Shown piece by piece: positions 24,769 to 40,831 of a stretch of 64,000 nt of DNA. The notes under the pieces are model-generated. The model had not been told where the DNA came from. It saw only the letters and a program-made list of their open reading frames with translations, and did not search any database. The first letter of the stretch is position 1; every line of letters starts with the position of its first letter. Origin of the DNA: Candidatus Poribacteria bacterium (GTDB lineage: Bacteria; Poribacteria; WGA-4E; WGA-3G); NCBI GenBank assembly GCA_965205015.1, contig OZ242029.1:2848001-2912000 (forward strand), written 5' to 3'. A program made the translations under genes and the position numbers.

Positions 24769-25620
24769 ATGGACACAAAGACAACACCCGAAAAACGGAA
24801 ATTTAAATTGACTTCTGAAGAACGATCCGCTTGGGAAGAGAAAGGATACTTCATCCGCTATAACGTTTTTACAAAAAAAGAAAACGACTTTTTAGCGCAA
24901 ATCGCGGATGACATTGCTCTCGGAAAACGCTCCTTCCCGGACTATCATATCTTTCAAAACGCTTTAGTCAGAGACGGTAAAATCGAAGCACAAGGCATCT
25001 ATGCGATGCACAATATCCAATATGTGAGTTGTAATTGTTCAGAATTCCTCACACGCACCCGTGATCCGCGCCTCACTGATCCCGTTGTTGACATACTCGG
25101 ACCAGATCTCCTCGGTCTCAACAATCTTTACATTTGGAAACCGCCAAAAATCGGTCTCGGCTTTCCATGGCACCAGGATAAATGGTATTTTAACCATCAG
25201 TATAAAACCGGAACGACAGTCGCAACATGGACTGCGATGGATGCATCAGATGAAAGCAACGGGTGTTTATACGTTATCCCCGGTAGCCACAAGTGTGGCG
25301 TTCGTGCGCACATTGAGCTTGAAGGTTCACAACAAGGAGAGTTTAAACAGGCAGAAGGGGCTCGTGATGAAGATGGTGTTGCGGTAGAAGTCCCTGCTGG
25401 AGCGGTCATCTATTTTAACAGCCAAGTCCTCCATAAAAGCACGGATAACCACAGTGAGCGTTTCAGACGCGCAAACATCGCACATTATATCAGTGCCAAA
25501 GCAGAATGGACACGTCCGGAGGCTGTGAATAAAAAACGACCTCCCATGTGGATTCGTGGTGAAACCTATCCCGGTATGGCAGCTGAAGTTCAATGGGACG
25601 TTATACCAATTTTAGAATAG
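24769..25620 (+). CDS. PhyH-family Fe(II)/2-oxoglutarate dioxygenase
   Basis: WHQD...GCLYVIPGSH...LHKS...R (HxD...H triad). Confidence 0.9.
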   Translation: MDTKTTPEKRKFKLTSEERSAWEEKGYFIRYNVFTKKENDFLAQIADDIALGKRSFPDYHIFQNALVRDGKIEAQGIYAMHNIQYVSCNCSEFLTRTRDPRLTDPVVDILGPDLLGLNNLYIWKPPKIGLGFPWHQDKWYFNHQYKTGTTVATWTAMDASDESNGCLYVIPGSHKCGVRAHIELEGSQQGEFKQAEGARDEDGVAVEVPAGAVIYFNSQVLHKSTDNHSERFRRANIAHYISAKAEWTRPEAVNKKRPPMWIRGETYPGMAAEVQWDVIPILE

Positions 25621-25668
25621 TACATCGTAATGGATCATGCCATATAGAAGTTATGGAAAAGAGCATTT

Positions 25669-26526
25669 ATGGACAGAAATACGACCCTCCAAGAACGCAA
25701 GTTTAGACTGACACCTGAAGAACGATTTTCTTGGGACGAAAACGGATACTTTGTCCGATTCAACGTTTTCACCAAAGCGGAAAACGACGTGCTACGTCAA
25801 ATCGCGGACGACATTGCCGTGGGAAAACGACCTTTCCCAAGAGGGAATATCGATCAAAACGCATTGGTCAGGGACGAAAAAGTTGAAGCCTCTGGTATCC
25901 ACGCGATGCACAAAATCCATCATGTGAGCTGTTATTGTCCTGAATTCCTTGACCGTGTCCGTGACCCGCGTCTCACAGATCCAATTGTTGAGCTACTCGG
26001 TCCAGATATTCTCGGTCTCAATAATCTGTATATCTGGAAAGCACCCAAGATTGGTTTAGGGTTCCCGTGGCATCAAGATAAATGGTATTTTAACCACCAG
26101 TATAAAACTGAGATGACAGTCGGAACGTGGACGGCGATTGATGCGGCAGATATAGATAATGGGTGTCTCTACGTTATCCCGGGTAGCCACAAATATGGCA
26201 TTCTTAAACATGAGGACTTGGAAGGTTCACAACAGAATGAGTTTAAAATAGCACGCGATGCCAAGGACGAAGATGGGGTCGCCGTTGAAGTGCCGCCTGG
26301 AGCCGTTGTTTGGTTCAACAACCAACTCCTCCATAAAAGCACGGATAACCACAGTTTACGGTTTCGACGGTGTAATGTGGCACATTATATCAGTACAAAT
26401 GCGGAACGTATCCCTAAAAAAGATGGCAAAAATATCCGTCCTGTCATGTGGGTTCGCGGTGATACATACTCAGAGAAGATGGAACCCGTCTATCGGGATG
26501 TTTTACCCATCCCAGAATCCGATTGA
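25669..26526 (+). CDS. PhyH-family Fe(II)/2OG dioxygenase, tandem paralog
   Basis: Same motifs; long identical stretches with the upstream gene (KIGLGFPWHQDKWYFNHQYKT). Confidence 0.9.
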   Translation: MDRNTTLQERKFRLTPEERFSWDENGYFVRFNVFTKAENDVLRQIADDIAVGKRPFPRGNIDQNALVRDEKVEASGIHAMHKIHHVSCYCPEFLDRVRDPRLTDPIVELLGPDILGLNNLYIWKAPKIGLGFPWHQDKWYFNHQYKTEMTVGTWTAIDAADIDNGCLYVIPGSHKYGILKHEDLEGSQQNEFKIARDAKDEDGVAVEVPPGAVVWFNNQLLHKSTDNHSLRFRRCNVAHYISTNAERIPKKDGKNIRPVMWVRGDTYSEKMEPVYRDVLPIPESD

Positions 26527-26586
26527 AAAAACAGAGTTTGTGTGCTATACTGACAAACAATAGGATTATTCGCAAGGAAGAGGGTT

Positions 26587-27372
26587 ATGTCTTACCTTAA
26601 TTTCGAACGCCACCGAGATTGGAAAACGAACGGTTATCTGCGGATTCCCGCCTTCTTCTCCACCGAAGAGGTGAACGATCTACAGGCATGGGTCTCTGAA
26701 ATCTCAGGCTGGGAACCGACGCCGGACAAGTGGATGCATCACTACGAATCCACGCCAGCCGGACCGCGGCTCTCCCGTTCGGAAAATTTCGTGCCGTATC
26801 ACATCGGTATGAAAACCACCGTGACACGTGGCAAAGTGTTAGATGTCGTTTCCGAGTTAATGGAGGAACCTGCTGTCCTCTACAAAGAGAAAATCAATTA
26901 CAAGTACCCCGGTGGCGGTGGTTACGCAGCGCACCAAGATGCCCCCGCTTATGAGTTCATCAAATTCCATATCACCTGTTTAATTTCTGTTGATGCAGCG
27001 ACTCCTGAAAGCGGATGCCTCTATTTCGCGCCCGGTAGGCACAACGAAGGATTCATCGCGTTGGACGAGAAGGGGTGCGTCGCCCCTGAAACCGCTGCAA
27101 CGATGGCGTGGGTCGCTGTGCCGACGGAGCCGGGAGACATTCTTCTCTTCGGCTCTTACATTCCACATAAGAGTCCGAGCAACCGCGCGGATCGACCGAG
27201 ACGCATTATCTATCTCACCTATAATGCCAGTTCCCAAGGCGACTGGCGCGAACAGTATTACGCAGACAAACGGCAGGCTTTCTCGCAGTACGCAGCCGAT
27301 GGCTCAAACCGAGACAAACAAATTAGTAAGATCGCACATTTTCAAGGGAAATCCGTGAATCATGACTTATGA
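26587..27372 (+). CDS. PhnY-like phosphonate alpha-hydroxylase (PhyH fold)
   Basis: KEKINYKYPGGGGYAAHQD, HKSPSN, RRIIYLTYN and YYADKR motifs; overlaps a phnZ-like gene. Confidence 0.7.
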   Translation: MSYLNFERHRDWKTNGYLRIPAFFSTEEVNDLQAWVSEISGWEPTPDKWMHHYESTPAGPRLSRSENFVPYHIGMKTTVTRGKVLDVVSELMEEPAVLYKEKINYKYPGGGGYAAHQDAPAYEFIKFHITCLISVDAATPESGCLYFAPGRHNEGFIALDEKGCVAPETAATMAWVAVPTEPGDILLFGSYIPHKSPSNRADRPRRIIYLTYNASSQGDWREQYYADKRQAFSQYAADGSNRDKQISKIAHFQGKSVNHDL

Positions 27373-28354: not shown

Positions 28355-29034
28355 TGAGTTACGAAACAATTGAATCAAAATTTACTGCAACACCAGAGAA
28401 AGGCGAGGTGTCCTCAATACTCATACGTCCGGACAACGCCAAATGGTTGCTCGTTCTGGGACATGGTGCAGGCACAAATATGCGCCACTCAACACTCCAG
28501 ACGATTGCCGAACGATTAGCAGATATAGGAATTGCTACCTTCCGTTATCAGTTTCCTTACATGGAGCGCGGCGGCGGTGGGAGAGAAGCGCAAGCCGTGG
28601 CACTGGCAACTGTGCGATCCGCGGTCGCAGCTGCACACGAGGCTGCGGGGGATGTCTCAATTCTCGTTGGTGGGCATTCTTATAGCGGACGTATGTCGTC
28701 GCTCACGGCGGCAGAAGCACCGATCGAACATGTCCGCGGTCTCGTATTCTTCGCGTTTCCATTGCATCCTTCTGGAAAGGAAGGAACAGAACGTGCCGAG
28801 CACCTTGCTGATGTTACTGTGCCAATGCTATTTTTATCTGGCACCCGCGATAAGTTAGCGGTCCTCGACCTATTGGAACCGGTTTGCGAAAACCTCGGGG
28901 ACAAGGCGACTTTGCATCTATTGGATACGGCAGATCACGGGTTCAAAGTGCTTAAACGTTCGCGTAAATCTGATGAGGATGTCTTTGTAGAGATGGCACG
29001 AGTCCTCAGTGAATGGATTGAAACACTGGATTGA
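28354..29034 (+). CDS. Alpha/beta hydrolase (KANL3-like)
   Basis: HGAG, GGHSYSGR nucleophile elbow, FPLHP, GTRD, ADHGF. Confidence 0.88.
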   Translation: MSYETIESKFTATPEKGEVSSILIRPDNAKWLLVLGHGAGTNMRHSTLQTIAERLADIGIATFRYQFPYMERGGGGREAQAVALATVRSAVAAAHEAAGDVSILVGGHSYSGRMSSLTAAEAPIEHVRGLVFFAFPLHPSGKEGTERAEHLADVTVPMLFLSGTRDKLAVLDLLEPVCENLGDKATLHLLDTADHGFKVLKRSRKSDEDVFVEMARVLSEWIETLD

Positions 29035-29060
29035 AACCTCTGTAATTGGCCTCCCAAACC

Positions 29061-29088
29061 CGGTAGGTGCGGTTTCTAACCGCACCGG
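29061..29088 (+). repeat. GTAG-footed REP-like hairpin
   Basis: CGGTAGGTGCGGTTTCTAACCGCACCGG. Confidence 0.6.
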
Positions 29089-29205
29089 ATTCCTTCCAAA
29101 CACCATCCCCCACTTCCCAGTCTTGTCAAGGCAGCATCCGATAACTAATAGGGGCTGTTTCCCAACCTCGTTGGTTCTCTATCTCAATCACACTCTCTAT
29201 CTCTT

Positions 29206-29275
29206 GTAGGAGGGAACTCCGATTCCCGACTTTGATTTCCTCAAACCAATAGGAAACCGAAAGCTAAATAGTCCT
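29206..29275 (+). repeat. REP/MITE-like element related to 15425-15525
   Basis: GTAGGAGGGAACTCCGATTCCCGACTTT plus 3' arm ACCAATAGGAAACCGAAAGCTAAATAGTCCT. Confidence 0.6.
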
Positions 29276-29294
29276 AATTTGTTTGATTTCCTTC

Positions 29295-29323
29295 TTGATT
29301 CTCCTCGCGAGATGTGTTACACT
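29295..29323 (+). promoter_or_regulatory. Putative promoter of the defence operon
   Basis: TTGATT-17 nt-TACACT with extended TG. Confidence 0.45.
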
Positions 29324-29435
29324 TTAACCAATCAATCGAGGCACATGGACGATTGAAAAAGCCTACCGTTCACAGCAGAATGCTGCGTAATCAACCTTTA
29401 ATTTAACCATCTTTCAGCGTTAGGTTCAAAGGAAA

Positions 29436-32400
29436 ATGGCAAAGAAAAAACGAAAAAGAAACCCCTTAAAGGCAAATGCTAAGCGTCAGGCACATGCGTC
29501 GCTAAAGGGATACCTCTATCAAATCTGGCATAGTGTGAATGCTTGGCTGGATCTTGCCGATGATGAAATTCTCTATCTGGAAGGTGCGGAGGACTTTGAT
29601 GTCCTATCAGATAGCGGTGATACAGCGACACAAGTCAAACACACGCGACGAAGGATAACACTCAGGTCTCAAGAGGTGATTGACGCGATTAACCACTATT
29701 GGGAATTGCGAACTAACAACCCGGATCGACGTGTGAAATTCCGTTTTCTCACGCGCTCCAAAATAGGTATGGAGCGGGGAAACCCATTTGGAAAGGATAA
29801 ACTTGGGCTCGAGTTGTGGCAACGTTGTTCGGATGATGAGGCAGCTATCACAAAAATTTCCGAGTTCTTACAAGCCGAAGGTAAAATATCGCAGGAAGTA
29901 AGAGACTTTCTCAAACAAGCAGAGAACCAAGAAATCTATGAAAAACTCATTGAGCCTATCACTTGGGAAACGGATAGTAAACCCGCCATTTACATTGAGA
30001 AAACCATAAATGATAAGCTGGTTCTCCACGGCAATCGGCAGTCTATCCCAATTCCACCTTCTGCTGCCAAAGAAACGCTTAATCGTCTTCTCAAGGAAGC
30101 CTTAGTGGTTGCGACACAAGAGGAAAACCGTGCGCTTACCAAAGTCCGCTTCCTTGAAATTTTCGAGGCGCAAACAACGCAAAGAGTCTCAACTCAACAT
30201 TTACAGCGCTTGCAGATGCAGGCAATAAAGATGGGTGATGTTGATCCGACATTACTTAAAGATCCATCTGATATTACAATTCAATCTCAGGTCGCTATAC
30301 AAAGTGAAATACCACAGATCTATCATGAATTTGCCCCGAGAACAGATATGGTTGCAAACATTCAACTTAAACTTCAATCAGACGGTATAGTTATAATCCA
30401 CGGAGGCGTGGACAAAGGGAAAACAACCCTTGCAAAATTGACTGCCAATGATATAGAGGGTGATTGGTTCTGGTTGAATTTTACCAATAAAGATCCGTTT
30501 TTGATTGACCAATATCTGCAGCAACTTGCTATTGCCGTAAGTAATCGATCCGCGCAGGTCAACATAGTCCTTGATGATCTGAACCTGCAACCTCAACAGT
30601 TGCGGACGTATGAAGAAGTTTTTGGGGGGACGGTTTACAGCGTACTGGAACGTGGTGCAAAATTATTGATCACAAGTCAACATAAGCCTCCTAATAATCT
30701 CATTCATCGTTTCGGTGTATCAAAGGCAATAGCAATTGATGTTCCGAACTTTACTGAATCTGAAATAAAGCAATTTGCTGAAGAAATGGGATGCCCTACT
30801 GATGACATAGACACTTGGGGGACATTAATTCAAGCACATACAGGTGGACATCCGAGGCTTGTACACGCGTGGCTCGTCCGATTGCAGGAGAAAGGTTGGG
30901 CAGAACAAAATATACTCACAAGTATCTTACAACCCCCGGAAGAGGTGATAGAAGAGCGTGAAGCAGCGCGCCAATTACTTACAGATTTACCAGAAAAGCA
31001 ACGGGAATTTCTTTATAGGCTTAGCCTGATGGTCACTGGATTCAGGAGAGAGCATGCTCTTAACATTGGCGAGATACCAGACCGTATAACTCATCCTGGA
31101 CATATTCTTAATCAACTGGTAGGTCCTTGGATAGATCAAGTTGATGAGAGATATTACACAATTTCACCTTTGTTGACGAACGCGGCTAAGGAAGATTTGT
31201 CCGCGAGGAGGATAAAGTTTCTTCATGCTCACATTGCAAACGCAATCCACAAAACAAAGAATCTGACCACAACGGAAGCATGGACTGTGTTCACACATAG
31301 TATGGCTGGAGAAAACAAAGAAGGGATTATCGCTTTCATTTATTCATTGATGAACGCTTCACAGAATGATTGGGAAAATCTTTGTCAAGAGTTCTCATTG
31401 TTAGCACACATTAAAATTGATCCTCCCGAAGAATTATTTCCTGGTGATGCCTTTCTAAATCAAATGTTTCGGTCATTGCAATATCGTATTGCGGTTGAAG
31501 TGAAACCAGAAATTGCCCCGAAGATACTTGAATTGTGGGATAAAGAAACTAAGCCATACAAACCGCGTCAGTCATATCTACTATCTCGCCTAATGCTGGC
31601 CACGGAAGTATTGAGATATAACCAAGTGTTGCTTCCAGCCAAGAAGATGGTGGGTTATCTTAGAGAAATGATTGACATCAAGAATAGGGATAAAAAAGTC
31701 TGGGCGATTTTCTACAATTCCGTGGGACAATTAGAAAAATATAAAACTGATAAATCTAACTATTTCAGTATCCTATTTGGTTTTATCTATGCGCGCCGCC
31801 CTATGTACGCGCCGTTTCTCACGGAGCTTATTGATGCACTGGACGAACTTGAACCAGAAACCCGGACATTATTATTGGCTGATTTTGAAGATGATACCGT
31901 TGACCCTCGCGTTCTGATAGATGGCATCTGGGGATCAGAAGCGAACCTTGAAAATCCAGATTGGACAAGGTGTCTACATGCATTTGACAAAGTAATTGAA
32001 AGAACTATTGCTTGGGGTTATCCTCATTTTGCTGCGGCAGCAGCAAGGGGTAAAGCAATGATCTACGATGAATGCTTAGATGAACCTGAACCTGAAACTG
32101 CCTACACAGTTCTTCAAGATTTTGTGTCAAAAGTGGGTCCTTCACCGATAATCGAGGAAGAACAAGCAGTCATATATTTACATCAGGAACGCTACAGAGA
32201 AGCACTCAGTATTTACGAACGTATTCTTTCCCATTGGCATCCACCGTCAGGACAATTAGATGTGATGCCTGCAGAGGCATGTCGCCGAGCTGCTATGTGT
32301 GCTGCACATTTGGATGATTGGAAGAAGGCATCTGTCTTTTTTGAAGATGCTGCTAAAAGAACTGAAAATATTGAGAATACCGAAAGACATATTAGTTTTT

Positions 32401-33725
32401 ATGTGGATGCAGGATTTGCTCACTTTAAAGCAGGCAATATGTTCAATTGTATAAAACTGCTGCATCTGGCGTTGCAAAATTTTGAAAGACTGCCTCAAGA
32501 CAATACAAATGTCAAATATTTTACTTTAAAGAAACGTTTAGAGCACACCATAAAATGGATAAAAACGATATGGTGTGAGTCGGAAGATAATTCTCCAAAA
32601 CTTTTTGAACCCCCTGTAGGTTTTTGTAGCGACCCGGCGACAAAAGAAGAGATTCTAACTCTTCCTGACTGTCCAACAGGATACGCTTGGCTCCATCTAT
32701 CACAAATTGAGTACAGATTTGGGCATGAGACGACAGTTTTCCAACACGCTCTGCAAACCACAGACCGAAAAGAATATCCGATATTGAATTTCTTCCTTTC
32801 TTTCCTTGAAGCACAATATGAATTTAGAAACAAAACTTTTGATAATCTGCCACAACGTATTTATCAGTTAGCATTAGTATATAGGGCGAGCAAAAAGCAT
32901 CAGCAAAGTGGAAGAAGTGCTGCAGAAAAAGGATCTTATTCTATATCTGACTCCGATCTCTCCGGCTTCGCTTCTGTTGATAACATCATTGCAATTTTTG
33001 TTGCAGCACTTGTTGTTAAAATGCGGACAAACAGAAATGAACAGGATATTTTGGCTAAATGGCGCACAAATTCGTCTGAACTACCTATTAAAGAGAATAT
33101 CTACTCCGCCCTTGATTTAATTGAATCCATATTGTTGGGGGATTATAATAATGCTCTTATAGTGATGAAAGCACAAGATTCTAAACCTGAAGAATGTCTT
33201 GCAGCAGCATTAAAGATTATTCATAATACCGAAACGAGCTCAGAAAATCTCTTTCATGCACATGCGCTCATTGCCCCTTATTTGGTTAGTAGTCTAATAT
33301 GGTTAGATTCCTTTGAAACAGGTTTAGCAAAACTTCTTTCTGTCCAATGGCTTAAAAAAATAAAATTTCGGGCGACGTTGAAAACACCTATGATTACAGT
33401 ACCCCAAATAGAACAAGCCTGTAACAGCAGTGAGACAGGCAAGAAAAAAATTGGACAGATTCTGCTTGCAGTACATCAAGCTGTCTCAGTCAGAGTCGCA
33501 CCCGAAACTCTACAGCAGCTGCGCAGTTGGGCAGAATTGGAATCAAAGCAGAGACAGGAACCCGAAAGAAGAAAAAATCCCGCTGCACAACGCCTCATCA
33601 AAGCGATGGAAAAACCACCCCATCTCACCGATGAAGACATTGATGCCCTGAACCAATCAATAAAAGAGGGGGAAATACCGATAAAGTTTGATTCACCCTT
33701 TGATTCGGATGAAAGTGATAAATAA
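29436..33725 (+). CDS. Avs-like defence protein: N-terminal PD-(D/E)xK-type nuclease, STAND NTPase, TPR/helical repeats and a VapB-like C-terminal tail
   Basis: SLKGYLYQ...EGAEDFD...QVKH nuclease motifs; Walker A GGVDKGKT, Walker B IVLDD, LLITS, GHP (STAND GxP); TPR-like helices; tail PAAQRLIKAMEKPPHLTDEDIDALNQSIKEGEIP. Confidence 0.75.
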   Translation: MAKKKRKRNPLKANAKRQAHASLKGYLYQIWHSVNAWLDLADDEILYLEGAEDFDVLSDSGDTATQVKHTRRRITLRSQEVIDAINHYWELRTNNPDRRVKFRFLTRSKIGMERGNPFGKDKLGLELWQRCSDDEAAITKISEFLQAEGKISQEVRDFLKQAENQEIYEKLIEPITWETDSKPAIYIEKTINDKLVLHGNRQSIPIPPSAAKETLNRLLKEALVVATQEENRALTKVRFLEIFEAQTTQRVSTQHLQRLQMQAIKMGDVDPTLLKDPSDITIQSQVAIQSEIPQIYHEFAPRTDMVANIQLKLQSDGIVIIHGGVDKGKTTLAKLTANDIEGDWFWLNFTNKDPFLIDQYLQQLAIAVSNRSAQVNIVLDDLNLQPQQLRTYEEVFGGTVYSVLERGAKLLITSQHKPPNNLIHRFGVSKAIAIDVPNFTESEIKQFAEEMGCPTDDIDTWGTLIQAHTGGHPRLVHAWLVRLQEKGWAEQNILTSILQPPEEVIEEREAARQLLTDLPEKQREFLYRLSLMVTGFRREHALNIGEIPDRITHPGHILNQLVGPWIDQVDERYYTISPLLTNAAKEDLSARRIKFLHAHIANAIHKTKNLTTTEAWTVFTHSMAGENKEGIIAFIYSLMNASQNDWENLCQEFSLLAHIKIDPPEELFPGDAFLNQMFRSLQYRIAVEVKPEIAPKILELWDKETKPYKPRQSYLLSRLMLATEVLRYNQVLLPAKKMVGYLREMIDIKNRDKKVWAIFYNSVGQLEKYKTDKSNYFSILFGFIYARRPMYAPFLTELIDALDELEPETRTLLLADFEDDTVDPRVLIDGIWGSEANLENPDWTRCLHAFDKVIERTIAWGYPHFAAAAARGKAMIYDECLDEPEPETAYTVLQDFVSKVGPSPIIEEEQAVIYLHQERYREALSIYERILSHWHPPSGQLDVMPAEACRRAAMCAAHLDDWKKASVFFEDAAKRTENIENTERHISFYVDAGFAHFKAGNMFNCIKLLHLALQNFERLPQDNTNVKYFTLKKRLEHTIKWIKTIWCESEDNSPKLFEPPVGFCSDPATKEEILTLPDCPTGYAWLHLSQIEYRFGHETTVFQHALQTTDRKEYPILNFFLSFLEAQYEFRNKTFDNLPQRIYQLALVYRASKKHQQSGRSAAEKGSYSISDSDLSGFASVDNIIAIFVAALVVKMRTNRNEQDILAKWRTNSSELPIKENIYSALDLIESILLGDYNNALIVMKAQDSKPEECLAAALKIIHNTETSSENLFHAHALIAPYLVSSLIWLDSFETGLAKLLSVQWLKKIKFRATLKTPMITVPQIEQACNSSETGKKKIGQILLAVHQAVSVRVAPETLQQLRSWAELESKQRQEPERRKNPAAQRLIKAMEKPPHLTDEDIDALNQSIKEGEIPIKFDSPFDSDESDK

Positions 33726-34141
33726 TGAATAAGTATCTCTTGGATACATCAACATGCAGTTTGTTGATGCAGGATATTCCCGGAGTAAAAAAGCGTTTGA
33801 ATTCGCTAACTGAGTCGGACTACCATTTTACTTGTCCCATCGTTAAGGGAGAAATTCTATTCGGAATTGGTCGGCTACCTTCCGGGAAAAGACGACAAGA
33901 TCTCGAACAAAGGGCAAATGAACTATTTGCTACGGTCCCATGCGACCCAATTCCAGAGAGGGTTGGCAATGTCTATGCACAGATAAAAATTGCGGCGCAA
34001 GAACAAGGAACATCTTTAAGTGAATGCGACCTTTGGATTGCTGCGACAGCTTTAGCTCTTGATGCAATTCTGGTTGCTTCCGATTCTGATTATGAAAGAA
34101 TAGTTAGATTAGGGCTTCGTTTGGAAGATTGGAAAAATTAA
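33725..34141 (+). CDS. VapC/PIN-domain ribonuclease toxin
   Basis: YLLDTS, VKGEILFG, CDLWIAATA, VASDSDY (four acidic PIN residues); TAATG overlap with the upstream stop. Confidence 0.92.
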   Translation: MNKYLLDTSTCSLLMQDIPGVKKRLNSLTESDYHFTCPIVKGEILFGIGRLPSGKRRQDLEQRANELFATVPCDPIPERVGNVYAQIKIAAQEQGTSLSECDLWIAATALALDAILVASDSDYERIVRLGLRLEDWKN

Positions 34142-34192
34142 CGAAAGAGATGTTTCATTTTAATAGCACAGATAAACTGAAAGGAAACGCGC

Positions 34193-35836
34193 ATGCCCAC
34201 ACTCGAATTTAAAGGAAAACAACACATCTACGCCCACCACCTCACCGTCCCCTACCGACCCCTCGAACCCGACGAAACCCGCTCCTGCAACCCGACCGAC
34301 ACAGACGACAATCTCATCATCCACGGCGACAATCTACACGCCCTCAAAGCATTACTTCCACGCTACGCAAACCGTATCAAGTGCATCTACATTGATCCAC
34401 CCTACAACACCGGCAACGAAGGCTGGGTCTACAATGACAACGTAAACAGTCCAGTGATGCAGCAATGGCTTACAGAGAACGCACCCATTGATAACGAAGA
34501 TTTAGAACGGCATGACAAATGGCTCTGTATGATGTGGCCGAGGTTACATCTTTTCAAAGAACTGCTTTCGGACGATGGTGTAATCTTCATCTCCATTGAT
34601 GATAACGAACAACATCACCTGCGGATGCTGATGAATGAGATTTTTAAAGAGGGAAACTTTAGAAATGTAATCAGTGTTCGCCGCGGTATCAAAAATGTTC
34701 AAGCCCAATTTGAGTATGTAGATCGCCTTAATGTGGGTTCGGAATATATACTTTTTTTCAGCAAATCCGCTGATATGAGGTTTCCGCATTTGACCGTTGA
34801 TATCGATGAAGATAAAGCTGGAAGTTGGAATAATCATTGGCGCGGCACCGATAGACCGACAATGCGATATGAGTTAATGGGAATAATCCCCGAAACAGGT
34901 CAGTGGAGATGGGAGAGACAAAGAAGTCTGAATGCCATAGAAAATTATAAACGTCTACTTGACGAATGTGGACCCAATCCTACTCAAGCCGAAATTGATG
35001 AATGGTGGTTTGCGCAATCACCTCAGAAGCCTGATTTATTGCGAAGGTCAACGACAAATCGACCCGAACACTTCGTTCCTCCATCAGATAAACGAATATT
35101 GAGTTCGCTCTGGACTGATTTGATTGTTAATGAGTCTTCCTCCTTAATGAGAGCATTAGATATTGAATTTCCAAATCCAAAGCGTACAGATCTAATAAAA
35201 CGAATTATTGATTACGCAACCGTGAGTGATGAAAACGCTATTGTTCTTGACTCATTCGCTGGTAGCGGCACGACTGCCCACGCTGTCCTATCCCTCAACA
35301 AAGAAGATAACGGCAATCGAAAGTTTATTCTCATTGAGTGCGAAGATTATGCCGACACTATCACTACAGAACGCGTTCGTCGTGTTATCAACGGTGTTCC
35401 CGAAGCACGTGACGAGGCACTGCGCGAAGGTTTAGGAGGCTCTTTTACCTACTGCACCTTGGGTGAACCGATTGAGGTAGAGACGATGCTCACCGGAGAG
35501 GCATTGCCCTCGTATGCAGCACTTGCCGCCAATCTGTTGTATACCACTTCTGGTGTTTCCGTCGGATCAGATAAATTAGAGTCGGAAAATGAGGATGGAC
35601 TTTTTCATAGCGATGACAAAAATGATTACTATCTGCTCTATGAACCCGACCTTGAATATCTACGCAGCAACAAAGCGATACTCAATCTGGAGCGCGCGGA
35701 ACGTATTCGCAATGCCAGTCATGAAAACGGTAGAAAAGCAATCGTCTACGCAGCAGGAAATTACATCGGTCAGCGTGAGCTCACAAAAATGGGTATTATG
35801 TTTTGTCAACTCCCCGATGCCCTGCATGAAAGATAA
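34193..35836 (+). CDS. mod: Type III restriction-modification methyltransferase (Mod)
   Basis: HGDNLHALK, IYIDPPYNTG, IFISIDDNE, FPNPK, LDSFAGSGTT (beta-class N6-MTase). Confidence 0.92.
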   Translation: MPTLEFKGKQHIYAHHLTVPYRPLEPDETRSCNPTDTDDNLIIHGDNLHALKALLPRYANRIKCIYIDPPYNTGNEGWVYNDNVNSPVMQQWLTENAPIDNEDLERHDKWLCMMWPRLHLFKELLSDDGVIFISIDDNEQHHLRMLMNEIFKEGNFRNVISVRRGIKNVQAQFEYVDRLNVGSEYILFFSKSADMRFPHLTVDIDEDKAGSWNNHWRGTDRPTMRYELMGIIPETGQWRWERQRSLNAIENYKRLLDECGPNPTQAEIDEWWFAQSPQKPDLLRRSTTNRPEHFVPPSDKRILSSLWTDLIVNESSSLMRALDIEFPNPKRTDLIKRIIDYATVSDENAIVLDSFAGSGTTAHAVLSLNKEDNGNRKFILIECEDYADTITTERVRRVINGVPEARDEALREGLGGSFTYCTLGEPIEVETMLTGEALPSYAALAANLLYTTSGVSVGSDKLESENEDGLFHSDDKNDYYLLYEPDLEYLRSNKAILNLERAERIRNASHENGRKAIVYAAGNYIGQRELTKMGIMFCQLPDALHER

Positions 35837-35882: not shown

Positions 35883-38465
35883 ATGTTAGAATTAAAGGAG
35901 TATCAGCGCGGTGCCCTTGACGCTTTGGTTCGTTGGTTAGAGGCGCTTGAAGACGCACAGCATGATTTAGATACTATGATTGAGGCGTTGGAACGGACAC
36001 CGGTTGATATTCCAATTCCTGATGAGCTGCGCAATTATCCCAAGGCTGCATGGCAAAGATTAAGAGAAACCGGCGGTGTCGCGGCAACTGCAGGCGAACA
36101 CGTTGACCGCACCGACGATGCAAACCGCTCCATTCCACATATCTGTTTCAAAGTGCCAACAGGGGGCGGTAAGACCCTACTCGCTGCCGCTGCATTGGAA
36201 CGTCTCCCTTGGCACCGTGGTTTAGTGCTGTGGGTTGTCCCAAGCAAGGCGATCTATGCACAGACGAGAGCCGCCTTGTGGGATAAGCAACACCCCTACC
36301 GTAAAATGTTGAACCGGGCGAGTGCAGGTCGCGTCAAGATGTTGGAAAAGGAGGATACCTTCAACAGAGACGATATCGCCAATTACCTCTGTGTCATGCT
36401 GCTCATGCTCCCAGCAACGAACCGACAAAGAGGCAGGGAGTTTCTCCGTATGTTCCGAGATTCCGGACGTTATCCCAGTTTTTACCCCGACAGCGATGAT
36501 ATCTTCGGCAATACCCGTCTGCTAAATGAATATCCTGATCTGGAGTGCCACACAGAAGGCGGACTCGTCAAACAGAGTCTATTCAACGTGTTTAAAATGC
36601 TACGTCCCGTCGTCATTCTGGACGAGGCGCATAAGGCATACGGCGCGCGAAATCGGCAAACAAACGAAGAATTCGCCAAATCCATCAACCGCCTTGATCC
36701 ACGAATGGTGATTGAACTCTCTGCCACACCCAACCGTGGCATCAGCAATCTACTTGTCGATATTGAGGGACCCGACCTGAAAAGAGAGGAGATGATTAAG
36801 TTACCGGTGCAGGTGACATCGTTTCCGAATGCCGAGTGGCAACTAACCCTCAGCCAAGCTGCTGACGAACTGGAACGCCTTGACACCGAGGCGCAATCGT
36901 ATGAGAACAGCACGGGGCGGTATATCCGTCCCATCGCCGTTGTGCGTGTTGAGCGGACTGGCAGGGATCAACGGGATAATGATCATGTCCATGCAGAGGA
37001 TGTCCGAGAGTATCTTACACAGAATTTGCGTGTGCCTTCGGATGCGGTTCGCGTCAAATCCGCCGAAAACGACGAACTCGGACGAGAAAATCTACTCTCG
37101 GAATATTCGCACGTGCGCTGGATAATCACGAAATCCGCCCTGATGGAAGGGTGGGATTGCCCATTCGCCTATCTCTTGGTAATGCTGGACAATACCCAAG
37201 CACAGCGGGCAATTACGCAGCTCGTCGGACGCGTGATGCGGCAACCGCATGCCCAACTCACCGGTAGAGAAGTGCTGGATCAGTGCTACGTCTATTGCAA
37301 TAATGTTGATGTCGGCACGGTCGTCACTCAAGTTAAAAATGGATTGGAGTCGGAAGGATTAACGGGCTTGGGTGATGAAGTGATGGGCGCGTCGGATGCA
37401 CAACAAGGAAGGGAGCCGCAAGAAATCCAACAACAGACCGTCCAACGCCGTGAGCAATTCCGAGATCAGGATATCTACTTGCCCGTGGTCCGCCATAGAG
37501 ATGGCGATAGATGGGTTCAACTCAATTATCAGGCACATATCTTGCCGTATATAGATTGGTCAACGATAGAACCACCCGATCCGAGAGCATCCGCACCTGA
37601 GAATGTCCGACGGCAATCTGCCACGGTTGATGTTGATGAAGTTCTACCTGTTTTTCATACCGAACAAGAACCGTTCATTGAAAAGAAGATTAGCATTTCC
37701 GATTTTGCGCGGCGATTGTCCGACATTATGCCGAATCTCTGGGAAGCGGCTCGTATTGCAGTGCAGATGCACGAACGCCTTAAAGCGGATGGTGAAACTG
37801 AAGCGGACATCTACGATAGGCGTTCTTACCTTGCACACGTTCTGCGGGAACATGTAAAGAGTGAGGTAGAAAAGCAGGCAGAGCAGGTCTTTCGTAGAAA
37901 ACTTGATCAGGATGAAATTCGCTTTGACTTGGAGACACGAGAACCCAACTATCGGATGGTAGATAGTTACAAGGTACAGGTTGGCTCTGATGATAGACCT
38001 CTATTAGGAAGAGATTATGAACCTGTGCAGTTAAGCCTATTTGAGCCAGTTTTTGAGCAACAATTCGATAGTGAATTGGAAAGGAAATTTGCCTACTACC
38101 TTGACGAAGAAAGAGCACTACAATGGTGGCATCGGGTCGCGGCGCGTCAACGGGGTGAGTATTACCTACAAGGCTGGAAACGCGGGCGCATCTATCCTGA
38201 TTTCGTTGCAATGGCAAACGAAATTGACGGCGTGACACACGTCCTAATTTTTGATACAAAAGGTGAACACCTTGCAGGCAACCTTGACACCGAGTACAAG
38301 CGAAAAGTGTTAGAAACGCTTGAAGGGGCATTCAACACTGCCGGTAGGATGGTGGTGCGGGAGGGACCGAGGCGGCAAGGCATCTTTCAATTGGTGTTCA
38401 GCGATCAGGAATTTCTGGAGATAACCGCCCGATTGGATATTCAGGCGTATGCTACGAGTCGGTAG
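35883..38465 (+). CDS. res: Type III restriction endonuclease/helicase subunit (Res)
   Basis: LKEYQ, PTGGGKT, DEAH, SATP, EGWD, QLVGRVMRQP; C-terminal YPDFV...DTKG nuclease. Confidence 0.88.
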   Translation: MLELKEYQRGALDALVRWLEALEDAQHDLDTMIEALERTPVDIPIPDELRNYPKAAWQRLRETGGVAATAGEHVDRTDDANRSIPHICFKVPTGGGKTLLAAAALERLPWHRGLVLWVVPSKAIYAQTRAALWDKQHPYRKMLNRASAGRVKMLEKEDTFNRDDIANYLCVMLLMLPATNRQRGREFLRMFRDSGRYPSFYPDSDDIFGNTRLLNEYPDLECHTEGGLVKQSLFNVFKMLRPVVILDEAHKAYGARNRQTNEEFAKSINRLDPRMVIELSATPNRGISNLLVDIEGPDLKREEMIKLPVQVTSFPNAEWQLTLSQAADELERLDTEAQSYENSTGRYIRPIAVVRVERTGRDQRDNDHVHAEDVREYLTQNLRVPSDAVRVKSAENDELGRENLLSEYSHVRWIITKSALMEGWDCPFAYLLVMLDNTQAQRAITQLVGRVMRQPHAQLTGREVLDQCYVYCNNVDVGTVVTQVKNGLESEGLTGLGDEVMGASDAQQGREPQEIQQQTVQRREQFRDQDIYLPVVRHRDGDRWVQLNYQAHILPYIDWSTIEPPDPRASAPENVRRQSATVDVDEVLPVFHTEQEPFIEKKISISDFARRLSDIMPNLWEAARIAVQMHERLKADGETEADIYDRRSYLAHVLREHVKSEVEKQAEQVFRRKLDQDEIRFDLETREPNYRMVDSYKVQVGSDDRPLLGRDYEPVQLSLFEPVFEQQFDSELERKFAYYLDEERALQWWHRVAARQRGEYYLQGWKRGRIYPDFVAMANEIDGVTHVLIFDTKGEHLAGNLDTEYKRKVLETLEGAFNTAGRMVVREGPRRQGIFQLVFSDQEFLEITARLDIQAYATSR

Positions 38466-39610: not shown

Positions 39611-40831
39611 ATGTTTGACAGTTTAACTGAACTCATTGAGAAGATATATCTCGGCGAGGATGCAACGATTGAATTTAAAAGGGAGTTGCCCCACAGAAAT
39701 AGCCTTGCCGACGAGATCGCCGCTTTTGCCAACGCTAAAGGCGGTGTGATCCTCATCGGAATTGGTGACAATAGTGAGATCGTTGGAATAGACCGGCAGG
39801 CACTCAATGAAGCGGAAAAAACGGTCGTCGAAATATGCCAAGACAGCATTGATCCAATAGTTCTCATCTTTACAGAAAAACTGCGGATTACTGACAAAAA
39901 TCTGTTAAAAATAGAGGTGCCGAGGAGTCTGTTTGTCCACAAAACCTCTAACGGCTACTTCATTCGTCAAGGAAGTAGCAAAAGGGAAATGCCCACCGAG
40001 CAGTTAGCGCGCTTATTCCAAACCCATTCGCAGGCACGTGTTGTCGCTTTCGATGAACAGTTCGTGCCGAATACGCATAAAGACACGTTAAGAAAAGACC
40101 TCTATCAACGATTTATCACAGAAGGTGCGGTTGAGGAGGACGAGATAGAAGACCTCCTGCTTAAAAGGCGTTTACTGGTCAAGGAAGGCGAGCAGAACCG
40201 CGCCTCTGTAGCCGGAGTCTTGATGTGTCATGAGAGACCGGACGATTACCTCTATAATAGTTTTATTCAGGCTGTTTATTACAACAGTAAGGAAAAAGAT
40301 GCGAACTACCAACTTGATGCCAAGGATTTCAAAGGACCACTCGATCAACAAATCATGCAAACCATGAAATTTGTTGAAAGATACAACGCAGTAGCGGCAC
40401 GGAAGGATATCGGCAGAATAGACCTTCCAGAATATAGCATGCGAGCCGTTTTTGAGGCAGTGGTTAACGCTGTTGTGCATAGAGATTATTCGAAAACAGG
40501 TTCCAAAATTCGCCTGTTTATGTTCGCCGATCGATTGGAACTTTATTCGCCAGGGGCATTGGCAAATACAGTGACGGTAGACAATTTACGCTACAGCCAA
40601 TCTACACGGAATGAACTCCTCGCTCGGTTACTCTCGGAAATTACGCTCGACGATGACATAGGCAAACAAGTCGTACGCCGACATTTTTTAGAACGCCGCG
40701 GGGAAGGGGTCGGCATCATCTTGAACGAAAGCGAAACTCTCAGTGGAAAAATACCTATATACGAACTGTTTGACGAGGAATTGCGTTTGACAATTTTCGC
40801 CGCAAAACCGCCACCAGTAACGGAGGGATAG
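39611..40831 (+). CDS. AlbA_2 (Schlafen-like) domain + HATPase_c_4/RecG-C domain protein
   Basis: GEDATIEFK, IAAFANAKGGVILIG, EAVVNAVVHRDY, YSPG, RN, ERRGEG. Confidence 0.85.
   Translation: MFDSLTELIEKIYLGEDATIEFKRELPHRNSLADEIAAFANAKGGVILIGIGDNSEIVGIDRQALNEAEKTVVEICQDSIDPIVLIFTEKLRITDKNLLKIEVPRSLFVHKTSNGYFIRQGSSKREMPTEQLARLFQTHSQARVVAFDEQFVPNTHKDTLRKDLYQRFITEGAVEEDEIEDLLLKRRLLVKEGEQNRASVAGVLMCHERPDDYLYNSFIQAVYYNSKEKDANYQLDAKDFKGPLDQQIMQTMKFVERYNAVAARKDIGRIDLPEYSMRAVFEAVVNAVVHRDYSKTGSKIRLFMFADRLELYSPGALANTVTVDNLRYSQSTRNELLARLLSEITLDDDIGKQVVRRHFLERRGEGVGIILNESETLSGKIPIYELFDEELRLTIFAAKPPPVTEG

Follow-up and report, generated by a model that had tools for sequence, protein, structure and literature searches.

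PARIS (AriA-AriB) and PrrC-EcoprrI are systems in which a large defense protein keeps an RNA-directed nuclease latent until it is disturbed. No Avs protein is known to us that ends in an antitoxin tail or has a toxin gene depending on it. Here, we analyzed a locus of a Candidatus Poribacteria bacterium, located in a 64,000-nucleotide stretch of contig OZ242029.1 (this whole stretch is called the window below), in which the gene of a 1,429-amino-acid (aa) nuclease-STAND-TPR protein is directly followed by the gene of a VapC-like PIN protein. The C-terminal tail of the large protein is probably the antitoxin of the adjoining PIN protein. The gene pair is best explained as a type II toxin-antitoxin module whose antitoxin is provided by an Avs-like Cap4-nuclease/STAND/TPR defense protein, in the form of its flexible C-terminal tail.

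With Avs3 and Avs4 (PDB 8dgc and 8dgf), the large protein shares the order of domains, namely, a nuclease, a STAND NTPase, and a C-terminal helical-repeat sensor. However, it lacks an Avs profile match in PADLOC 2.0.0, and the identity in the fold alignment is only ~11%. With the VapBC modules (6nkl; FitAB, 2h1o; 3zvk), the locus shares a PIN toxin with conserved acidic residues, an antitoxin encoded directly upstream, the stop/start overlap, and, as modeled here, a C-terminal peptide lying over the active site. It differs from them in that a 1,380-aa defense protein replaces the DNA-binding domain of the antitoxin, and in that the tail family has neither a Pfam or NCBIfam model nor a solved relative. 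The likeness to PARIS and PrrC-EcoprrI is one of concept, a latent nuclease on a defense protein, the release of which is hypothetical in the window system; those are noncovalent assemblies of unrelated proteins, whereas here an antitoxin peptide is fused to a STAND sensor. The accessible part of a recent paper describes 195 toxin-antitoxin gene fusions and a PtuA-like ATPase/restriction endonuclease (REase)/RelE operon (Gerdes 2025, PMC11980606), in which toxin-antitoxin parts likewise occur within larger defense architectures. In the systems presented in that part, toxin and antitoxin are fused together or the toxin is a third gene, whereas here the antitoxin alone is fused, and to a sensor. 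According to the accessible text on TAC systems (bioRxiv 10.1101/2024.02.24.581848), antitoxin function depends on a third, phage-sensing protein, and an antitoxin is tied to a (presumed) phage sensor in both cases. However, TAC as presented there is a noncovalent chaperone-addiction element, whereas the antitoxin of the window system belongs to the presumed sensor protein itself. The parts, an Avs-like STAND sensor and a VapBC-like module, are known; their combination, an antitoxin on a STAND sensor with a separate toxin, was not found described, and an antitoxin fused to any STAND or Avs protein was not found in the full-text literature within reach, which did not extend to subscription journals and supplements.

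The gene pair has the following features, for which open reading frames (ORFs), AlphaFold2 (AF2) models, and the predicted local distance difference test (pLDDT) score were used (positions in the window):

29436-33725, + strand: sensor gene, an open ORF for the 1,429-aa nuclease-STAND-TPR protein with the fused putative antitoxin tail
29478-30185, + strand: Cap4/DUF4297-type (PD-(D/E)xK) nuclease domain, aa ~15-250 (PADLOC LmuA and DUF4297 profiles)
30336-31205, + strand: STAND NTPase core with helical/winged-helix part, aa ~301-590 (conserved motifs, AF2 model, Foldseek)
31206-33533, + strand: all-alpha TPR-like solenoid, the presumed sensor, aa ~591-1366 (TPR_12, AF2, Foldseek)
33534-33575, + strand: variable charged linker, aa ~1367-1380 (identity, pLDDT, codon changes)
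33576-33704, + strand: putative antitoxin tail NPAAQRLIKAMEKPPHLTDEDIDALNQSIKEGEIPIKFDSPFD, aa 1381-1423 (antitoxin C-terminus profile, complex model, conservation)
33721-33727, + strand: overlapping stop/start TAATG, from sensor gene to PIN gene (sequence)
33725-34141, + strand: gene of a VapC-like putative PIN toxin, 138 aa (Pfam PIN, profile matches to solved VapC proteins)

Both ORFs are intact, and the TAA stop of the sensor ORF overlaps the ATG of the PIN ORF as TAATG. Overlaps of -1, -4, or -8 between the two genes were likewise found in relatives. In the ORF list of the window, no other + strand ORF of at least 40 aa ends at the PIN start, i.e., a separate vapB was not found. In these three respects, the ORF list and the sequence bear out an earlier note made from the sequence alone, which had pointed to the TAATG overlap, the intact PIN gene, and the missing vapB.

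The same note had called the tail antitoxin-like. Metagenome contigs from nonsponge settings were scanned with the PIN alignment, which yielded 80 loci with homologs of 28 to 61% identity. Twelve were dropped, since their PIN match started far from the N-terminus or at the edge of a contig, and 68 were examined. In most of them, an ORF of 65 to 115 aa ended within a few bases of the PIN start; in one (L087), there was no upstream ORF, and the contig ended there. The N-termini of these small ORFs varied (AF2212-like, RHH/ParD-like, or DUF2281-like, mostly with weak or subthreshold Pfam matches). What they had in common was a C-terminal segment of ~45 aa that aligned with the tail of the window protein.

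An antitoxin profile was built from the last 55 aa of the upstream ORFs of at most 125 aa, using the loci up to L144 and excluding three seemingly unrelated ORFs located 67 to 72 nucleotides from the PIN gene (L109, L116, and L124). When it was compared with the 1,147 six-frame ORFs of the window, the large ORF was the sole match (E value of 9e-17). Without the closest locus, L080, the profile (47 sequences) matched aa 1384 to 1426 of the large protein with an E value of 2.6e-13 (45 bits), and the next-best ORF had an E value of 0.82. Metagenome loci with PIN proteins of ~30% identity had an antitoxin C-terminus of another kind. No Pfam or NCBIfam model matched a 74-aa stretch comprising the tail, and PADLOC, run on the whole sensor protein, matched its N-terminus only and nothing in the tail. 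Among PDB sequences, the antitoxin profile had 0 matches at an E value of ≤1. Among long proteins (180 to 2,000 aa), it had none at an E value of ≤0.001, which is weak evidence, the other fusions having come from genome searches. Judged from these alignments, the last ~45 aa of the large protein are homologous to the toxin-binding C-termini of stand-alone antitoxins of the same PIN subfamily and are probably a true antitoxin module.

For the complex model, a 34-row alignment of the PIN protein and a 22-row alignment of the last 60 aa of the large protein were used as input. The pair scored 0.80 (0.79, 0.82, and 0.80 in the single runs) versus 0.02 for the best control; the pass mark is reached by 58 of 80 solved complexes and by 2 of 110 mismatched pairs. 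The pLDDT of the partner was 71 to 72, and at least 94% of the contacts were common to the runs. The modeled interface comprises residues 9 to 44 of the 60 tail residues and, on the PIN side, residues 8-9, 12-17, 25-34, 43-51, 56-72, and 99-101, corresponding to the face with D7, E43, and D102. The model supports binding of the tail across the active-site face of the PIN protein. Together, the profile of stand-alone antitoxins, the complex model, which had been proposed as a check and passed its controls, and the co-occurrence described below agree with the view of the tail as antitoxin-like.

Furthermore, the tail is the best-conserved part of the large protein. Among 45 full-length orthologs, the mean pairwise identity was 0.857 in the tail (aa 1381 to 1423), 0.648 overall, 0.656 in the nuclease, 0.666 in the NTPase, and 0.515 in the linker (aa 1366 to 1380), and the ten best-conserved 43-aa segments of the protein all overlap the tail. 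When 19 loci were compared with the window, 46% of the tail-core codons differed, and 58% of these changes were synonymous; in the flanks, the synonymous share of the changed codons was 18% (linker) and 14% (last six codons). Because most changed tail codons are synonymous, we conclude that the constraint acts on the peptide and not on the DNA. A DNA-level constraint such as an embedded promoter, considered as a cause of the conservation, was ruled out by the same codon changes.

Matches to the PIN protein were found in 83 of the 175 genomes of the phylum and the tail in 118; this is expected if an antitoxin may outlive its toxin, but not the reverse. In a PIN-centered test, the best 100 of the 106 PIN places in the phylum were fetched. 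A tail-like segment ended at the PIN start for 83 of 84 intact PIN genes with at least 52% identity. It was part of a frame of at least 1,400 aa in 24 cases, of 200 to 1,399 aa in 13, and of <200 aa in 46. The sole exception (L179) retains only the last ~22 tail residues, and a DUF4926-tail gene is present elsewhere in that genome (L042). Six of the 12 partial or broken PIN genes in the same identity range were without an adjacent tail, and none of three PIN genes at 36% identity had one. At the loci with a short tail protein and a PIN gene, there was no sensor within 5 kb upstream.

The fusion itself was followed in a scan with the tail alignment, which, with one genome per species, gave 79 loci (75 from Poribacteria and 4 labeled "uncultured bacterium"). 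Where a full-length sensor was accompanied by a PIN gene, the tail was in frame in 20 of 20 loci, in line with the expectation that full-length homologs keep both the tail and the adjacent PIN gene. Of five full-length sensors without a PIN gene, two were fused to the tail (L010 and L050), and three were split from it by a frameshift in the linker (L037, L071, and L073). The hand-calculated chance that all three splits fall among these five is 10/2300 (~0.004), uncorrected for relatedness, and L071 and L073 may represent one event.

On the protein level, 428 homologs of the large protein were found at an E value of ≤0.001 among the candidates scored, and the 120 listed are 61 to 77% identical. 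The full tail is present in 106 of these 120, the window protein included, and 14 end before or inside it. A search with aa 1 to 1200 among 1.84 billion representatives found 2,657 relatives, 862 of them at an E value of ≤1e-30. Apart from the query, 149 are listed, most of them ~1,330 to 1,390 aa long and 27 to 42% identical, and the tail profile matched only 2 of the 149, both fragments of close relatives. The distant homologs end at the end of the body of the window protein, and 0 distant full-length representatives had the tail. One cluster of this family is annotated merely as "tetratricopeptide repeat protein." Because the distant homologs stop where the protein body stops, we conclude that the tail was acquired in the Poribacteria lineage, by a member of a sensor family that is widespread but has no name. 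A one-off in-frame fusion, which had been considered as the alternative in the earlier note, was ruled out: with 24 full-length cases among the 100 PIN places, the fusion is of old standing and has been maintained within a single phylum, though it is absent from the distant homologs.

The large protein has the architecture of a defense sensor. When the whole protein was scanned with PADLOC, the LmuA profile (Cap4 type) matched aa 16 to 245 (E value of 7.5e-12) and the DUF4297 profile was also found (8.6e-07); in the ortholog L001, Pfam Cap4_nuclease scored above its cutoff. Motif conservation was assessed in a 51-row alignment with homologs down to 28% identity. In the nuclease, the columns E49, E52, D53, D55, Q66, and K68 are invariant or nearly so (E52, D53, and Q66 invariant, K68 nearly). 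G328 and K329 of Walker A (323-330) and D380 of Walker B (377-381) are invariant, and the GHP motif (471-473) has G471, H472, and P473 invariant or near-invariant, H472 being invariant. The Pfam STAND models nSTAND3 and NACHT gave subthreshold scores only. The AF2 model of aa 1 to 720 had a pLDDT of 89.8, and its top PDB fold match in Foldseek was Avs3 (8dgc_A; E value of 1.7e-10; ~11% identity in the fold alignment), followed by Apaf-1, MalT, CED-4, and plant NLRs; Avs4 ranked 47th. For the C-terminal half, TPR_12 scored 28.6 bits over aa 909 to 975, slightly below the cutoff of 30.1, and the AF2 model of aa 721 to 1429 (pLDDT of 87.5; predicted template modeling score of 0.84) is an all-alpha solenoid that matched TPR solenoids, e.g., those of Ctr9, Ski3, and consensus TPR. 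The solenoid body stops near aa 1366, and the linker has a pLDDT of <50. The tail is modeled as a low-confidence appendage of two short helices that is not packed against the solenoid.

Profile matches, AF2 folds, and TPR fold matches confirm the nuclease-STAND-TPR architecture that had been read from the sequence, and the nuclease and STAND motifs named then sit on invariant or near-invariant columns in the 51 homologs. The epithet "Avs-like" held in part: fold and architecture agree with it, Avs3 being the top match, whereas no Avs profile of PADLOC 2.0.0 matched the window protein or any of 10 distant homologs. Because of the missing profile match, "Avs-like" describes fold and architecture here, not family membership. 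Nine of the 10 distant homologs were called LmuA and/or DUF4297 (one also with a weak PDC/mad8 match), and one had no match. A Lamassu system, as the LmuA match might suggest, was rejected: the profile spans only aa 16 to 245, which is a domain-level match, and an SMC-like LmuB is not among the neighbors (the PIN gene, type III Mod and Res, an alpha/beta hydrolase, and a Schlafen-like protein).

The 138-aa protein matched Pfam PIN (PF01850) with 45.5 bits versus a cutoff of 23.6, and a PIN profile found the solved VapC 6nkl (5e-12), FitB, 3zvk, and tRNA(fMet)-specific VapC proteins. Of the acidic residues, E43, D102, and D122 do not vary among 34 orthologs, and D120 is nearly invariant. All NCBIfam VapC equivalog models scored under their cutoffs for this protein. 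These matches suggest that it is a VapC-like PIN RNase and a putative toxin.

The tail is not the only putative antidote carried by these sensors. About 40% of the 120 listed homologs are 75 aa longer and start with DUF4926 (Pfam PF16277), a domain that Pfam did not find in the window protein, which begins directly with the nuclease. According to the accessible part of a preprint, DUF6883 (BECR-Tox3) and DUF4926 are proposed to be a toxin-immunity pair, based on gene neighborhood (bioRxiv 10.64898/2026.08.28.747851). In four of the nine long-form loci examined (L010, L013, L015, and L019), the sensor gene starts where a DUF6883 gene (PF21814; 100 to 104 bits; frames of ~120 to 145 aa) ends. 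DUF6883 genes are also located directly before short DUF4926-tail genes at L025, L042, and L045. Across the relatives, DUF4926 scored 74 to 79 bits and DUF6883 scored 67 to 104 bits. The proposed pair thus recurs in relatives with DUF4926 as the sensor N-terminus and, at some loci, DUF6883 encoded just upstream, whereas it is missing from the window copy. By these domain matches, some sensors have putative antidotes at both termini and are encoded between two toxin genes, and the window copy has the C-terminal pair only.

Moreover, the tail is modular. Short proteins composed of DUF4926 and the tail, or of an AF2212-like part and the tail, likewise precede the PIN gene, and the tail is also found behind TPR-repeat and AAA_21 ATPase proteins, each before a PIN gene. 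At L214 (genome G061), a 614-aa TPR protein with 12 repeats, and at L220 (G028), a 510-aa AAA_21/AAA_15 ATPase read into the tail, both before PIN genes of 60 to 63% identity. At L260 (G035), the frame of a protein of ~440 aa with Cys-rich motifs, otherwise unknown, also continues into the tail. The antitoxin retains its own Met and a DUF2281-like N-terminus at L220 and L260. Among the intact paralogous PIN genes in the same genomes (52 to 61% identity), 30 of 31 have antitoxin frames of <200 aa. Conventional paralogous pairs of a small antitoxin, the C-terminus of which resembles the tail, and a PIN protein are thus present in the same genomes, e.g., at L234 (in the genome of L160) and at L216-L243, and cross-neutralization is possible.

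Several loci of relatives have been remodeled. A second short tail remnant and 5' fragments of the type III Mod gene lie upstream of the sensor at L002 (2275-2397), L018 (1496-1621 and 2461-2727), and L030 (2579-2758). At these three loci, the tail/PIN/Mod junction was seemingly duplicated when the sensor gene arrived; this repeat is absent from the window. At L262 (G081 C149), where two deletions have occurred and the PIN gene is lost, a single in-frame product starts with DUF4926 and continues through the second half of the solenoid and the tail to ~14 residues from the very end of the PIN protein. The locus is strikingly deletion-prone. At L009, L016, L030, L034, and L035, other small toxin-antitoxin-like genes are clustered upstream of the sensor or DUF4926-tail gene; they encode HicA-like and HicB-like proteins and AF2212-like antitoxins with a different C-terminus.

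How would such a fusion act? We infer that the PIN protein is toxic, that the tail neutralizes it, and that the two genes are translationally coupled. The tail would wrap around the VapC-like PIN RNase on its active-site side and keep the enzyme inactive, so that each sensor molecule would carry one masked RNase. The toxin would be harmless only as long as full-length sensor with a free tail is produced, and loss, truncation, or shut-off of the sensor, or its destruction or inhibition directed by a phage, would unmask the RNase. In this way, the tail would serve as a lock and a failsafe on the sensor, penalizing the loss of a costly 4.3-kb gene and backing up the DNase arm. Given that the tail is the antitoxin, we regard this lock and failsafe as the likeliest role, while giving it somewhat less than even confidence. 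The RNase is likely not the primary output of the sensor, because distant homologs lack the PIN gene and because sensor-less tail proteins precede the same PIN gene. The link between sensor and tail appears to matter, because the fusion never reverts where the PIN gene is present and because the opposite terminus bears a further putative antidote in some relatives.

Several observations weigh against this interpretation. Classical VapB has a DNA-binding domain at its N-terminus; the tail has none, and the nuclease-STAND-TPR protein stands in its place. VapBC complexes have already been solved, and the binding mode behind the complex score may have been learned in part. In the PIN protein, D7 is mostly D, and it is E or Q in some of the 34 orthologs. 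Nine loci combine a broken sensor gene with an intact PIN gene, which weakens a strict lock. They represent three frameshifts, four 5' deletions (two with a common breakpoint), one insertion, and one internal deletion, and in all nine the frame is open from the break through the tail. In genome G002, the broken-sensor locus holds the only tail copy found. Therefore, either translation from internal starts yields the tail, or the cells can tolerate the toxin. Furthermore, all relatives belong to one phylum, and the counts are not independent events. Finally, toxin-antitoxin genes abound at the locus, and fusions and deletions arise there readily, which would suit a passive origin of the fusion.

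An explanation to which we assign a rather low, though real, probability is that the sensor itself triggers the release. The earlier note had put forward such a model, with phage-triggered oligomerization, cleavage, or decay of the sensor; an addiction or integrity lock is at least an equal rival to it. In this case, the TPR sensor would bind a phage protein, and ATP-driven oligomerization would displace or hide the tail, so that the PIN protein would act as a second, RNA-directed effector in addition to the Cap4 DNase; the long forms would at the same time let go of a DUF6883 RNase bound to DUF4926 at their N-terminus. PARIS and PrrC are precedents, since their nuclease stays masked by a defense ATPase or a restriction enzyme until a phage signal arrives. 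In the AF2 model, the tail leaves the end of the solenoid directly, on a flexible linker, and the covalent link is kept in all 20 loci with sensor and PIN gene. The second putative antitoxin/immunity domain (PF16277) at the other terminus of ~40% of the 120 listed relatives, the upstream DUF6883 gene in four of nine long-form loci, and the link that the preprint, in its accessible part, draws between DUF6883 and DUF4926 as toxin and immunity protein (bioRxiv 10.64898/2026.08.28.747851) also point in this direction. However, distant homologs have neither the tail nor the PIN gene, and the sensor therefore already has its own effector. Moreover, sensor-less short proteins (DUF4926-tail and AF2212-tail) precede the same PIN gene, so control of the PIN protein needs no sensor.

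Less probable, in our view, is a purely passive fusion, in which a vapBC-like module came to lie behind the sensor gene and the intergenic stop was lost. The tail would then neutralize the PIN protein, and the link would provide only a promoter and a start codon. Stand-alone versions of the module in the same genomes (30 of the 31 intact paralogous PIN genes), the other upstream ORFs that read through into such antitoxins (the TPR protein, the AAA_21 ATPase, and the unknown 440-aa protein), and the many deletions and fusions at the locus are consistent with such an origin. Set against this, the 24 full-length fused cases persist among orthologs that are only 61 to 77% identical, and no locus with sensor and PIN gene has been reseparated, versus three of the five sensor loci without a PIN gene. 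Furthermore, the fused arrangement would in effect lock the sensor ORF, regardless of any selection for this property.

It is improbable that the tail is a docking peptide that recruits the PIN protein as an active partner, e.g., for RNA targeting near the sensor complex, instead of inhibiting it. The accessible part of one paper does describe STAND conflict systems with adaptor-coupled effectors, including PIN RNases, and with co-opted toxin-antitoxin parts (PMC7159879). However, the modeled interface lies over the catalytic face (PIN residues 8-9, 43-51, and 99-101), and, apart from this case, the tail family occurs in small proteins of the antitoxin type whose genes directly precede PIN genes.

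An assembly or annotation artifact, i.e., a frameshift or misjoin near 33530 that creates a false fusion, can practically be dismissed: contigs assembled from short reads of two runs, which may be the source sample, are identical to 32800-33608, 33590-33747, and 33727-34118, with zero differences, the identical in-frame junction recurs in 20 independent assemblies, and 106 of 120 listed homologs, counting the window protein, have the full tail. Matching contigs and the repeated junction thus rule out a misassembly at the fusion junction, and the two runs contradict the sequence error that the earlier note had considered at this position.

In two RNA-library runs, contigs from relatives only were found, corresponding to 5% of the sampled words; one of these contigs covers the end of the tail, the PIN gene, and the start of Mod, which is not proof of transcription. 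A scan of 28900-34400 for promoters and terminators gave sites no more numerous than in shuffled sequence, and in the same scan no + strand terminator lay between the tail and the PIN gene.

Downstream of the PIN gene, the following genes are located:

34193-35836, + strand: Mod of a type III restriction-modification system (PADLOC MTase_III, E value of 5.8e-152)
35883-38465, + strand: Res of a type III restriction-modification system (PADLOC REase_III, E value of 5e-188)
39611-40831: gene with Schlafen AlbA_2 and HATPase_c_4, 3' of the type III restriction genes

Mod and Res are conserved neighbors, and in relatives the same Mod start comes after the tail or the PIN gene. We count them as neighbors; as members of the sensor-PIN system, they are candidates at most. 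The Schlafen-like gene (39611-40831) enlarges the defense island beyond the type III genes. The block of defense genes is bordered by metabolic genes, and an alpha/beta hydrolase is among the neighbors. The G+C content is 0.38 to 0.45 across the block versus ~0.47 to 0.52 in the flanks, and no direct repeats of note border the cassette within the window. Just after the alpha/beta-hydrolase gene, a G+C-rich perfect palindrome with 9-bp arms and a 4-bp loop is located at 29060-29092. Motifs with a similar translation are found again between the genes of several Poribacteria loci, suggesting that the palindrome may be a dispersed element resembling repetitive extragenic palindromic (REP) sequences. 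Upstream of the island, 24769-27372 contains three tandem phytanoyl-CoA dioxygenase (PhyH) paralogs.

In summary, the tail family is a widespread, unannotated, and putatively PIN-neutralizing module with at least six different N-terminal partners. This probable antitoxin peptide has become part of an Avs-like sensor of sponge-symbiont bacteria, where it has been retained in evolution wherever the toxin is also encoded. Should the tail mask the RNase, the locus would offer a testable case of a pattern-recognition receptor that controls a separate toxin via a covalent antidote, or of a toxin that polices a neighboring long gene. A more far-reaching and speculative idea, which we put forward as possible but doubtful, is that of a "toxin-loaded" bacterial NLR, in which antitoxin modules fused to the ends (the tail for the PIN protein and, in the long forms, DUF4926 for a DUF6883 RNase) would keep one or two RNases tethered and silent, phage recognition or sabotage would release them, and truncations would be self-punishing. 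If true, this would represent a general route for coupling type II toxins to pattern-recognition receptors. The finding bears on how toxin-antitoxin systems are wired into phage defense and on the upkeep of costly defense genes.

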